A stretch of 64,000 nt of DNA from Octopus vulgaris (Eukaryota): assembly GCA_951406725.2 (NCBI GenBank), contig OX597825.1, positions 26,102,001 through 26,166,000 on the forward strand, read 5' to 3'. A model generated the notes under the pieces. The model was given only the letters and a program-made list of their open reading frames with translations, ran no database searches and was not told the origin of the DNA. The translations under genes were made by a program, and so were the position numbers. Below are positions 4,595-47,265 of the stretch, in pieces (the first letter of the stretch is position 1; each line of letters opens with the position of its first letter).

Positions 4595-5143
4595 GAGTGA
4601 GAGAGCAGTTCATGCCATCAAAGTGACACTGGGGTAAAATATACGAAGCCCAATATACCCATCATGACTACCCGTCTGATAAAGGTACACCAGGCACATG
4701 CATCACAACCATATGTGCGCGACATGGTGATCTCATATCAAGATAAACTGTGCATGACCTTGCAGGTGGGGCCCAGTTAGAATTTTATTCAGGTTGAGTA
4801 GCCCATCACGCTCAAACGGTCCCTGAATAAGGGTTGTTTAAGGATGGTGAAAGAACCACCCATGTTTCCAGAAGTGAACTATTCAAACCCCAAAGAATCC
4901 CTCTCAACACATGGCTATGATGCTCCCCCACTACTTCTGCTAGTGATCAGAGATGCACATATTGTCAGCCACTAAGGGACATGCTCAACTGGTTAAGGTC
5001 AAACAACTGACAAGCAAATCTGTGGTATTGAGCAGATTATTTGCTGTAGCCCATCTTTTATACCAAGACAAAACAATGTACATGATAACACTTCCAATCA
5101 GTTAAGATCAGAAGCCATGAGAGCCACTGCCTGGTACTGCATC
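4595..5143 (-). mobile_element. Non-coding (TAA)n-embedded retroelement 'B', longest copy (~550 bp)
   Basis: Flanked on both sides by (TTA)n. It shares a fixed 3' end (..GCTCTCTCACTC then AAT repeats) with the copies at 32886, 33247 and 44317, which have different 5' ends. No long ORF and no tRNA head seen. Confidence 0.85.
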
Positions 5144-5549
5144 TATTATTATTATTATTATTATTATTATTATTATTATTATTATTATTATTATTATTAT
5201 TATTATTATTATTATTATTATTATTATTATTATTATTATTATTATTATTATTATTATTATTATTATTATTATTATTATTATTACTATTACTATTACTATT
5301 ATTATTACTATTATTATTATTACTATTACTATTATTATTACTATTACTATTATTATTACTATTATTATTATTATTATTATTATTACTATTATTATTATTA
5401 CTATTACTATTATTATTACTATTATTATTATTATTACTATTATTATTATTATTACTATTATTATTATTACTATTATTATTATTATTATAAGTATTATTAT
5501 TATTATTATTATTATTATTATTATTATTATTATTATTATTATTATTATT
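5144..5549. repeat. ~400-bp (TTA)n microsatellite with TAC-interrupted core
   Basis: Seen directly; it is the source of the poly-Tyr ORF 5117..5626. Confidence 0.98.
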
Positions 5550-5890
5550 CAGTAGTTTTATTTTTTATAGCGTGCTTTCACTTCACTACCGAGCGCAGCT
5601 CTGTGTGCCTTGGGTATGTGCTGTGATTTGTTGTGATGCTCTGATGGTTATTGTATGGAAAGTGTTCTGCGTAGGATGTGTGCAGTGCCTAGTAGTGCAA
5701 TTTTCTGTATGTTATATGTATTTGTAAGTCCTGGTGTTTTTGTTATGTATGTGTCTGAATATTTTTTTATCATGCCTAATGCACCTACTATGATAGGAAT
5801 TGTTTCTGTTTTTAGATTCCACATTCTGGTTACCTCTATTTCCAGGTCTTTGTATTTTGAGAGTTTCTCCATTTCTTTTAGAGACACGTT
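5550..5890 (-). mobile_element. 5'-truncated R4/Dong-clade LINE (family 1): endonuclease C-terminus plus 3' UTR
   Basis: Encodes NVSLKEMEKLSKYKDLEIEVTRMW...IPIIVGALG...QKIALLGTAHILRRTLSIQ*. Nearly identical to 44722-45060. (TTA)n on both flanks. Confidence 0.92.
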
Positions 5891-6049
5891 ATTATTATTA
5901 TTATTATTATTATTATTATTATTATTATTATTATTATTATTATTATTATTATTATTATTATTAATCCATCTTCTACCTGAATAAAGTACCATTCGCTTTC
6001 TGGAATCAATTAATTTATAACATTGACGCATTACTTGACAGCGAAAAGT

Positions 6050-6265
6050 TTGGTTTCAAAGTATGCCACCAAGCCAACAAGTTCGAGGGGGTGAATCATT
6101 CGATTATATCGTCCCCATTGCCCAACTAGTACTTATTTAATGGACCTCGAATGATTGAACGTCAAAGTTAACCCTGGTGTAATTTAAACTTAAAACGTAC
6201 AGACGAACGAAATGCCACTAAGCATTTTACCCGGCGTGCTGTCGATTGTTCCAGCTTGCCGCATT
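6050..6265 (-). mobile_element. Degenerate SINE family B copy (others at ~232-420, ~6380-6540, ~14700-14880 and ~33640-33805, all minus)
   Basis: Reverse-complement similarity to the intact copies at 33868 and 61961 (GTCGACTTTGCCTTTCATCC...AGTACCAG central domain). Confidence 0.7.
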
Positions 6266-44316: not shown

Positions 44317-44637
44317 AAGTGTGAGAGCTGTGACACTGGGGTAAAATATACGAAGCCCAAGATACCCATCATGACTACCATCTAATAAAGGTAGACTAGC
44401 CACATGCCTCACAACCATATGTGCGCGAAATGGTGCTGTCATATCAAGATAAACAGCACATGACCTTGCAGGTGGGGCCCGGTTAGAATGTTCTTCTGGT
44501 CGAGTAACCCATCCCGCTCAAAAGGTCCCTGAATAAGCGTTGTTTAAATACGTTGAACGAAACACCTATGTTTCCAGAGGTGAATTATTCAAACCGCAAA
44601 GAATCCCTCTCAACACATGACTATGATGCCCCCCCAC
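44317..44637 (-). mobile_element. Element B, 5'-truncated diverged copy in (TTA)n
   Basis: Colinear with 4595-4931, with short TTA repeats on the left and (TTA)~28 on the right. Confidence 0.87.
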
Positions 44638-44721
44638 ATTATTATTATTATTATTATTATTATTATTATTATTATTATTATTATTATTATTATTATTATT
44701 ATTATTATTATTATTATTATT

Positions 44722-46594
44722 CAGTAGTTTTATTTTTTTAGCGTGCTTTCACTTCACTACCGAGCGCAGCTCTGTGTGCCTTGGGTATGTGCTGTGATTT
44801 GTTGTGATGCTCTGATGGTTATTGTATGGAAAGTGTTCTGCGTAGGATGTGTGCAGTGCCTAGTAGTGCAATTTTCTGTATGTTATATGTGTTTGTAAGT
44901 CCTGGTGTTTTTGTTATGTATTTGTCTGAATATTTTTTTATCATGCCTAATGCACCTACTATGATAGGAATTGTTTCTGTTTTCAGGTTCCACATTCTAG
45001 TTACCTCTATTTCCAGGTCTTTGTATTTTGAGAGTTTCTCCATTTCTTTTAGAGACACGTTGTCATCTGCCGGTATTGATACATCAATTAGAAAGCATTT
45101 TTTTCTTCATGATATCTGACAACTATATCTGGTCTGTTGGCCTTAATTTCTCTATCTGTGTGTATCGGCATATCCCAGAGTATGGGTGCTTTCTCGTTTT
45201 CTGTGACCTTTTCTGGTGTGTGCCTATACCATCTTTTTTCTGTTGTTATTCCATAATGTTGGCATAGCTTCCAATGTATGTAGGTTCCAACTCTGTCATG
45301 TCTGTGAATATATTCCTTCTTAGCCAGGACTGGGCAGCTAGAGATAATATGATTTATTGTTTCTTGTCCATCTCCACATATTCTGCAGTTACTTGTAATA
45401 TTTCTTTACATTACATGTTTTTGGTAATTTCTGGTGGGGAGGCTTTGGTCTTGTGCTGCAATTAAAAATCCCTCTGTTTCTGCTTTGAGTCCTGAGCTTC
45501 TCAACCATTGCTGGGATTTTTCTTTGTCTATTTCTTTTGCGTTTAGTTTAGTCCAGTATTTACCATGAAGGGGCTTTTCTTGCCATCGTTTTATCATGGC
45601 TCGTTGCTGTTCTATTTTTAGTTTGGATTTCATTTGTTTTATAGCTTTTGTTGTTTCTTTATCATCTTCTTCTTCTTCTTTGTGTTTATTAAGTGGTATG
45701 ATTTCTTGTTTGTATTTGTCAGCTTCCTTAAATACTGAGAACGGTTTTTTGTTTTGCTCGTGTTTTGCTCCTATCTGGATCAGTTTTCCTTCCTTCTGAA
45801 GTAGGTATTTTTGCAGTCCTATGGTGGTTATTTTATAGTAGTTTTCCGGCTGTATAAGGCCTCTACCACCTTCTATACGTTGTATATATAGCCTTTCTAT
45901 GTCAGATTTTGGGTGATGCATCCTAGATCCTGTCAGTATTTTTCTTGTTTTCCTATCTATTTTGGTCAGTTCATTTCGTGTCCAGTTAAGGATATTGTAG
46001 CTGTAACTTATAACTGGGACAGCTAAAGTGTTGATACCTATTATCTTGTTTTTAGCATTGAGCTCTGTTTTTAGTATTGATCTAACTCGTCTATAATATT
46101 CTTTTTTTATTTTCTCTTTCATTTGTGTGTGTTGTGTCTTATCTAGTTCATGGATTCCTAAGTATTTGTAACTTTGGCTTTGGTCTAATTCTTTTATTTC
46201 ATTGGTTTTATCTAGTGTGACGTTGTTACTCTTAACTAGTTTTCCTCTTTTCATGGTTACTTTGGCGCATTTTTCTAATCCAAATTTCATATCTATTTCT
46301 TTGGTAAATCCATGAACTGTCTTTAATAGTGTTTCCAGCTGTTTGTCATTTGCAGCGTATAGTTTTAGGTCATCCATATATAAAAGGTGGCTGATCGTTT
46401 TGCCGTAACATTTATATCCGCATCCAGTTCTATTTAGCATATCAGATAGAGGTGACAGTGCCAAGCAGAAAAAGAGTGGAGAGAGCGTGTCTCCCTGGAA
46501 TATTCCTCTTCTAATGGGGATGTCTTTGGTTTTCATGAGTCCCTCTTTTGTTTGGAGGTGTAGCACTGTTTGGCATTTATTCATAGAGTGCTCT
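44722..46594 (-). mobile_element. 5'-truncated R4/Dong-clade non-LTR retrotransposon (family 1): RT, CCHC zinc finger, restriction-like endonuclease, 3' UTR
   Basis: RGIFQGDTLSP, HLLYMDDLKLY, YKYLG and GGRGL; after an in-frame TAA at 45406-08, CRICGDGQETINHIISSC, RHD and RPDIV; after a -1 frameshift in the A-run at ~45098-45104, LIDVSIP..EKLSKYKDL..IIVGALG. Both ends abut (TAA)n. Confidence 0.95.
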
Positions 46595-47059
46595 ATTATT
46601 ATTATTATTATTATTATTATTATTATTATTATTATTATTATTATTATAATAATCATTATTATTATTATTATTATTATTATTGTTATTATTATTGTTGTTG
46701 TTGTTATCACCTTGCTTGAGATATGTTTTTGGAGTGCTGTAAGCTTCTGTTTAATTCACTAGATTTAAAAGCTTCAATATTGTATTTTGATAAACTGTTT
46801 TGCAAGCCAGCTGTGTTTTGGGGGTAGGGGACTGGACTTTATTAAGTAAAGATGCATTTTGTCGGTGATACAAACATTTTCTGTTTTCAAATTACTTCGA
46901 AAATTTGCTTCGAAGAAAGCAAACATTAAGGATGGTGAGGAAAAGCAGGATTCAGGAAGGATTATTATTATTATTATTATTATTATTATTATTATTATTA
47001 TTATTATTATTATTATTATTATTATTATTATCATCATCATTATTATCATTATTATTATT

Positions 47060-47265
47060 GCCTCCGCACAGCTTCTAACGCTAGAGATGTACTGAGGTGT
47101 CAGCTGCTCACTACCAGTGAACTAAGGTAACACCTCTTATTTTTCGTGCACCTTCCGGAGTATTCGGGCAGTTCCAAGCAGTGTTGTTTTCTGTAAGTGT
47201 TCCACCCTTATTGCAGCCCCTATTTGTTCCACGTACATCTCGAGATTTTTGCTCACTGTTCCCAG
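47060..47265 (-). mobile_element. R4/Dong-clade family 2, extreme 3' end
   Basis: Translation LGTVSKNLEMYVEQIGAAIRVEHLQKTTLLGTARILRKVHEK* (stop 47137-39), a distinct 3' UTR, then (AAT)n. Confidence 0.85.

Follow-up and report, generated by a model that had tools for sequence, protein, structure and literature searches.

The stretch analyzed here, a 64-kb window of the Octopus vulgaris genome (positions 26102001-26166000 of contig OX597825.1; genome size 2.8 Gb), contains the 3′ ends of two families of Dong retrotransposons of the R4 clade, here called family 1 and family 2, and several copies of a short element, element B. An earlier note on this DNA had recognized an RNA motif common to the three and had read it as an H-type pseudoknot. 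Comparison across Dong families gives a different picture: the motif in the Dong/R4 3′ untranslated region (UTR) is, with high confidence, a conserved nested hairpin, the stem sequences of which turn over with compensatory changes. On the evidence as a whole we think it likely that this hairpin is the template signal of Dong elements and that element B borrows the Dong enzyme, possibly by means of a weaker hairpin of the same kind.

A conserved nested hairpin in the 3′ UTR of Dong elements

Loci fetched from the octopus (own) genome supplied 3′ ends with tails for about 20 Dong families, and a metagenome scan provided 80 loci of Dong relatives; scans of viral and prokaryote collections returned none. 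Covariation statistics were calculated for 25 Dong/R4 families, 12 from the own genome and 13 from metagenome contigs. Left out were clusters 16, 30, 31 and 32 (deleted copies, an element B chimera and a second F17 copy), F10 (its motif is near-identical to that of F4), nine families that failed the hairpin descriptor, and metagenome loci lacking a 3′ end or TAA tail (e.g., L262, L263, L266, L285 and L326). A tree of the 25 C-terminal proteins, made up of own-genome and metagenome families and free of named Dong/R4 references, separates into two clades (support 95/100).

The consensus structure consists of an outer stem closed by a C-G pair, a 3x1 internal loop (NNA / Y), a 6-bp stem in which the first base is mostly G, and an apical loop in which one G never varies. 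The loop measures 5 nt in 21 of the 25 families, and in all 21 its third base is G; position −1 is C in 24/25 families and the internal-loop A is likewise present in 24/25. The distance from hairpin to TAA tail is 33-86 nt. When 35 Dong families, some of them known from a single representative, were scored on a hairpin descriptor, 26 beat their own shuffles (p<=0.03). The shared structured 3′ RNA motif, which had been proposed for three elements, is borne out far more widely within Dong.

Scoring by the descriptor is confined to the upper stem and anchor bases, which leaves the outer pairs open to fair testing. Outer pairs −2 to −5, none of them anchors, are Watson-Crick in 64 of 100 cases as against 35.0 with the 3′ strands swapped among families, and not one of 20,000 swaps matched the real figure. 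At −3/+3, 24 of the 25 families have a canonical pair (A-U 10, G-C 8, U-A 3, G-U 3; one mismatch). The upper 6-bp stem is Watson-Crick at 121/150 positions, a figure biased by the use of that stem for anchoring, and five of its six pairs show double changes. The outer-stem signal is found separately in the 12 own-genome families, the 13 metagenome families, the 13 families with at least three copies and each of the two clades in the protein tree. Sliding the outer-stem partners reduces pairing from 75% to 25-38%. Given 19 real copies, trimmed by hand to a common register and put into a gap-free MAFFT alignment, RNAalifold returned the nested fold unprompted, with double changes in 7 of 9 pairs; the covariation score of the outer stem was reached by none of 500 shuffles and by no slid version.

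Held-out families are recovered by models of the hairpin. Model R1, built from 19 families excluding F1, F4, F5 and element B, found M16 (E 1.8e-5), M11 (4e-4) and F4 (2e-3), and among its 12 matches in the window the two family 1 copies rank second and third (E 0.56), in the nested register. Model R2 (26 families, element B excluded) returned 65 matches in 409 kb of loci, with 37 of the 37 checked lying in Dong UTRs; in a 400-kb sample of stretches spaced evenly along the genome it returned six, one of them in the UTR of a previously unseen Dong family. F17 is absent from both models: its single decayed copy failed the descriptor, and the majority sequence of 19 copies adopts the full fold with a loop, TTGTT, that cannot form the pseudoknot.

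Several points weigh against the nested hairpin as a general feature. Nine of the 35 families fail the descriptor and, after three were rescued, F11, F18, F19, F20, M14 and the borderline F13 are still unfitted by it. The predicted pairing probability of the outer stem is below 0.2 in 5 of 25 families (M8, M13, M6, F16 and M10). Model R1 missed both F5 and element B, and gave family 1 a score of only 11.5 bits. The metagenome families all come from one clade, and the motif register was fixed by hand before alignment. Permutation p-values are too small, since the families are related and not independent, and those of the descriptor are optimistic because it was written after the data were seen.

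The tails of L100 and L247 (both F11) and of L220 and L352 (both F18) lie off the descriptor; they are either variant folds or decayed copies.

Dong elements and element B in the window

A regular-expression scan with the loose motif pattern of the earlier note gave six matches in the 64 kb and none besides, confirming the motif letters at every place where they had been reported (three in element B, two in family 1, one in family 2). The proposed position, 35-80 nt from the 3′ end, is confirmed also: a (TAA)n run begins at that distance past each of the six. The matches are:

33045-33066, plus strand: element B motif
33468-33489, plus strand: element B motif
4687-4666, minus strand: element B motif
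5616-5584, minus strand: Dong family 1 motif
44787-44755, minus strand: Dong family 1 motif
47129-47109, minus strand: Dong family 2 motif

The elements that carry them, and their predicted hairpins, are as follows (ORF, open reading frame; RT, reverse transcriptase; RLE, restriction-like endonuclease):

4595..5143, minus strand: element B, near full-length, short of its initial ~7 nt and flanked by TAA runs; 97-98% identical copies occur on many contigs
4648..4695, minus strand: element B hairpin; outer stem of 12 bp, internal loop TTA / T, upper stem of 6 bp in which an A is bulged, loop GGGTA
5550..5888, minus strand: Dong family 1, 5′-truncated (ORF end and 3′ UTR), separated only by a TAA run from the element B copy downstream of it
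5578..5626, minus strand: family 1 hairpin; TACC/GGTA outer stem, internal loop CAA / C, upper stem of 6 bp interrupted by one mismatch, loop of 6 nt whose third base is G
32570..32850, plus strand: element B, old decayed 5′-truncated copy with degenerate motif (self-comparison, 75.6% identity)
32886..33137, plus strand: element B, 5′-truncated, flanked by TAA runs
33037..33084, plus strand: element B hairpin, copy 2
33247..33560, plus strand: element B, 5′-truncated and with an internal deletion, flanked by TAA runs
33460..33507, plus strand: element B hairpin, copy 3
44318..44637, minus strand: element B, diverged 5′-truncated copy with decayed hairpin, absent from the earlier note (self-comparison, 90.6% identity)
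44722..46595, minus strand: Dong family 1, 5′-truncated; RT (Pfam RVT_1, E 4e-14), CCHC finger, RLE nuclease, one frameshift, 3′ UTR
44749..44797, minus strand: family 1 hairpin, copy 2
47060..47265, minus strand: Dong family 2, 3′ fragment (ORF end and 3′ UTR) with terminal TAA run
47092..47138, minus strand: family 2 hairpin; outer stem containing a C.C mismatch, internal loop TTA / A, upper stem of 6 bp, loop TGGTA

A search of the window against Rfam returned no family match. An assembly gap of 100 N is present at 60366-60465. A very abundant, different short interspersed nuclear element (SINE), with 96 matches in 400 kb, avoids TAA runs and served as the control below; its copies in the window include 33864-34101, 47265-47632, 18039-18257 and 61955-62190, with others besides.

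Both Dong families of the window are the 3′ ends of RT elements. Family 1 is evidently a young and abundant long interspersed nuclear element (LINE) of the RLE type: it has 56,148 first-look candidates in the genome, and its top copies are 96-98% identical. An intact frame of 1227 aa (L061/L062) contains RVT_1 (E 1.5e-32) and zf-RVT followed by an RLE nuclease, and both the CCHC finger (CRIC..HIISSC) and the PD-D-K nuclease motifs (RPD..LID..K) are visible in it. The nearest solved relatives of this ORF are R2 proteins (E 4e-36). TAA stands at both ends of family 1 insertions, which have gone into (TAA)n, and domain order together with TAA insertion appears to fit Dong of the R4 clade, reported to target TAA in silkworm, mosquito and snail (PMC3812793). 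Family 2 is a distant family of the same kind.

A 5′ ribozyme resembling that of hepatitis delta virus (HDV) is reported for Bombyx Dong (PMC3774820). A strict descriptor of HDV-like ribozymes was blank on two family 1 5′ ends and one F6 5′ end, as was Rfam, and neither found such a ribozyme in the first 260 nt of family 1 (L061, reverse strand).

Two further observations concern the ends of these elements. Full-length copies of Dong and of element B often start with their initial 15-35 nt repeated in tandem, in as many as ~8 units (family 1 at L061, L062, L064 and L065; F6 at L348; element B at L010, L021 and L032). At L382:7222-7262 (minus strand) lies the 3′ end of a Dong family met only once, the DNA of which is nearer to metagenome loci than to other sampled own-genome families.

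Element B is very likely mobilized by Dong

Element B is evidently a non-coding, non-autonomous retroposon of ~555 nt with a fixed 5′ end; its longest stop-free frame has 59 codons. Extrapolation from five 3′-complete copies in the 400 kb of evenly spaced stretches gives ~35,000 copies in the genome, with a wide error. At loci fetched near Dong copies, TAA follows 66 of 71 element B 3′ ends and precedes 49 of 64 copies; for a control SINE from the same loci the counts are 0/43 and 1/41, with a background of 4.4%. The unbiased 400-kb sample gives TAA after 5/5 copies of element B and before 4/5. Element B and the Dong families join the repeat in the same phase. Truncation at the 5′ end is variable, with 28/64 copies beginning more than 50 nt in, and 3′ ends are intact; tandem 5′ duplications occur both in element B (L010, L021) and in family 1 (L062, L064, L065). 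Given the TAA ties, the common phase, the 5′ truncation and the Dong-like 5′ duplications, it is very likely that a Dong protein mobilizes element B.

The element has no detectable sequence relation to the Dong families sampled. Its comparison with the Dong protein gave no significant match, and BLAST found no similarity to full-length family 1, to 323 own-genome Dong ends or to the 80 metagenome loci. An origin as a decayed Dong coding fragment was rejected: small searches on either strand gave short look-alike peptides (best E about 0.005-0.04), none significant. Rejected also was a head derived from tRNA, small nuclear RNA or a ribozyme, there being no tRNA, no Rfam match and no B box, and a T4 run at position 78. 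The ribozyme descriptor was blank on element B, which says little because it was blank on family 1 as well.

In L077:2205-2459 (minus strand) and in L104 a Dong coding fragment abuts a 5′-truncated element B with no TAA spacer, either by template switch or by later deletion. The L077 junction raised the possibility that element B is the tail of a hidden LINE; this was rejected, and the junction is taken as a single chimera, because 39 of 40 matches end there.

The element B hairpin is a suggestive match

Read in the Dong register, the element B hairpin consists of C, TTA, a 6-bp stem with bulged A, GGGTA, T and G. The best site of model R2 within element B is the motif itself, with 12/12 pairs canonical and the bulged A placed as in F5. 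We consider the match suggestive; it is not significant. Its score against model R2 is 6.2 bits (E 0.36 in the element's own 601 nt), the hairpin is missing from the window lists of models R1 and R2 up to E 10, descriptor shuffles give p 0.02 for the older majority sequence and 0.11 for the younger, and the G found at the start of the upper stem in 23/25 families is lacking. The whole element folds mildly better than its shuffles (z −1.67; single 3′ ends −0.2 to −2.0), values so small that fold stability alone proves nothing. The last 30 nt (4595-4625, minus strand) are predicted to pair with positions ~207-250 (~4900-4940), closing a large domain around the tail hairpin.

That the hairpin is the handle by which element B becomes a substrate is, on balance, slightly favored. 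The alternative, that the Dong hairpin is real and that of element B unrelated or incidental, is less probable but carries some weight. Under it, element B would depend on an unsampled partner LINE, or be copied by virtue of its TAA tail and proximity. The weak model score and the lack of BLAST similarity to any sampled Dong end speak for it, and an unsampled partner is possible because an octopus repeat survey (PMC13282606) lists 51 Dong-R4 families as against the roughly 20 sampled here. Against it, the top site in element B is the motif itself, in register, 67 nt from the tail and with the F5-type bulge; the outer stem outlasts the changes from old to young element B subfamilies by way of G-U pairs; and the examined Dong-to-B junction (L077) is single-copy. 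The earlier proposal that the motif explains both trans-mobilization and TAA targeting of element B is therefore upheld in part: element B very likely moves by Dong, but its hairpin match is not significant and could not by itself account for targeting.

A probable role in template recognition

In RLE elements the choice of target belongs to the DNA-binding and nuclease parts of the protein, as established for the R2 element. Since targeting is a property of those parts, the hairpin alone cannot explain TAA targeting; it would be the protein, and not this RNA structure, that makes Dong specific for TAA. What the hairpin probably does serve, judging from related systems, is template recognition by the Dong reverse transcriptase. 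By analogy with eel UnaL2 and the R2 element, the Dong protein would bind the hairpin by way of two features, its loop G and its flexible internal loop, and nick (TAA)n DNA, with reverse transcription primed at the TAA tail of the RNA. More tentatively, the hairpin of element B may make its RNA a substrate in the same way.

It is improbable that the hairpin is kept for another job, such as 3′ end formation, RNA stability or translation. Such a role would agree with support that so far consists of position and conservation, and with the overlap of hairpin and stop codon in several families (F4, M8). The invariant unpaired G and A, however, match the pattern of LINE tail stem-loops that are read by protein (PMC1636434, PMC4176376).

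Template recognition by this hairpin would have practical consequences. A 40-nt candidate signal, supported by covariation, for a whole RLE clade amounts to a minimal and directly testable Dong/R4 substrate; no RNA determinant for Dong/R4 proteins was found described in the literature searched, and these proteins are related to those of R2, which today serve in RNA-templated gene insertion. The hairpin model doubles as a detector of Dong 3′ ends. Should element B indeed ride by mimicry of shape, searches for shared tail sequence would miss partnerships of this kind between SINEs and LINEs. A broader view is speculative and, to our mind, somewhat doubtful: that R4/Dong elements across animals have one ancient recognition module (3x1 loop plus loop G), of which element B, as a SINE-like parasite, copies the shape alone, with no Dong-tail sequence and no RNA polymerase III (Pol III) head.

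Alternative foldings of the motif

The three motifs had been placed in a single alignment, with TACC paired to GGTA, and this is not borne out by their predicted folds. The predictions that follow come from ViennaRNA, the energy model of which is nested-only and does not represent pseudoknots. The family 1 GGTA makes up the 3′ side of the outer stem (TACC:GGTA probability 0.98-1.0) and corresponds to the Y-C-G-G of other clade A families; what had been taken for an inserted hairpin is part of the upper stem with its loop, and the partner of GTG is a CAC lying upstream, the pair originally proposed having probability 0.0. The GGTA of family 2 and of element B, by contrast, lies in the apical loop, SAC:GTS forms with probability 0.995-1.0, and TACC pairs with the downstream strand, in element B with a second GGTA inside the 12-bp stem. 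Relative to the hairpin, the TACC of element B is one base out of register with that of family 2. Because ViennaRNA cannot fold pseudoknots, the call on TACC is limited to its being already committed to the downstream strand. The covariation proposed between CAC/GTG and GAC/GTC accordingly holds between family 2 and element B and fails for family 1.

Nested-hairpin and pseudoknot hypotheses were tested on the same rows. Run over family alignments, the covariation check comes out positive for the outer stem, as described above, and negative for TACC and the loop: over the 21 families with a 5-nt loop, pairs between −1..−4 and loop positions 2..5 number 41/84, as against 42.3 on swapping (p 0.77). 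Two further registers show no covariation either (31/105 against 27.2; 29/63 against 29.3), so that a pseudoknot was rejected in all three, and its stem covariation score was matched by 357 of 500 shuffles. The same difference between outer stem and pseudoknot appears in own-genome, metagenome and multi-copy families and in either clade taken separately. Loops reading TTGTT, TAGTA, TAGGG, TAGTT or TGGCT break the pairing outright.

A nested hairpin supplemented by one tertiary contact, from the −2 pyrimidine to the loop G, or by a protein-bound pseudoknot switch in the F2/F5/F14 lineage, seems to us quite unlikely. It would agree with the presence of C or U at −2, opposite loop G3, in 19/19 aligned copies, and with the outer stems of F2, F5, F7, F12, F13 and F14, where −2 stays mismatched as C.C. 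But the invariance of the loop G leaves no covariation signal, −2 is Watson-Crick paired within the outer stem in 17/25 families with U-A/C-G exchanges, and a 6-bp stem stands between −2 and the loop. Least probable of all, at very long odds, is the H-type pseudoknot of TACC and loop GGTA as a signal common to families 1, 2 and element B: TACC does occur together with an NGGTA loop in F2, F5, F14 and element B, and avian and turtle R2 do use a 3′ UTR pseudoknot (PMC12180492), but against these stand the three registers and the shuffles, the family 1 GGTA that is not a loop, the loss of loop complementarity with the outer stem kept in F7 (the sister of F2), and a T or A at loop position 2 in F17, F4, M1, M6 and M9.

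Comparison with known systems

The nested fold of Dong tails is well supported, and tail stem-loops as such are already well known from other LINE clades. Neither the R4/Dong 3′ hairpin nor element B was found described in full-text literature or in Rfam; most subscription papers, Repbase and Dfam lay outside this search and may describe either. The accessible portions of PMC9115989, PMC5804259 and PMC13708176 hold nothing on the motif.

Element B is unlike a canonical SINE in having no tRNA, 5S or 7SL head with Pol III boxes and, among the families sampled, no LINE-homologous 3′ tail. Closer to it are the R4-dependent SINE-like elements of Entamoeba (EdSINE1, R4-N1_ED and EhLSINE1/2; PMC3747384), the heads of which are of unknown origin, and the R2 SIDEs (short internally deleted elements) of Drosophila (PMC3774820). 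Like these, it is non-coding and very likely paired with an RLE-type LINE. The Entamoeba elements and the SIDEs, however, have the 3′ sequence of their partner, and the SIDEs a ribozyme also; element B has neither with respect to the sampled families, and is strictly tied to TAA.

The Dong elements themselves resemble Dong, DongAg and DongBg (PMC3812793, PMC3774820), compared by description only, in that RT, CCHC finger and RLE nuclease are encoded in a single ORF and TAA flanks the element; for these three, the literature searched gave no account of a conserved 3′ hairpin. With R2 elements they have in common the protein superfamily and a structured 3′ UTR, which in R2 is read by the protein: a pseudoknot-hinge-stem in avian and turtle R2 (PMC12180492) and two stem-loops in Bombyx R2 (PMC11194090). 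Dong differs in having one nested hairpin with no supported pseudoknot, and in its target, (TAA)n in place of 28S rDNA.

The nearest likeness is to the tail stem-loop of UnaL2 and ZfL2. Eel UnaL2 requires a split stem-loop with a GGAUA loop, one G of which is read by protein; the UnaL2 / ZfL2 stem-loop is needed for retrotransposition and is used in trans by UnaSINEs (PMC1636434, PMC4176376). There are differences: UnaL2 belongs to the L2 clade, with a nuclease of the apurinic endonuclease type and the key G second in the loop, whereas Dong has an RLE, the G third and a 3x1 internal loop; and the UnaL2 LINE and SINE have ~60 nt in common, whereas element B has no detectable sequence in common with sampled Dong tails. 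The architecture is nonetheless alike: a stem split by an internal loop or hinge, a 5-nt loop containing G, and a terminal microsatellite next to it. Dong tails show what characterizes the UnaL2 type, namely a conserved split stem-loop with a conserved loop base, just before the terminal repeat.

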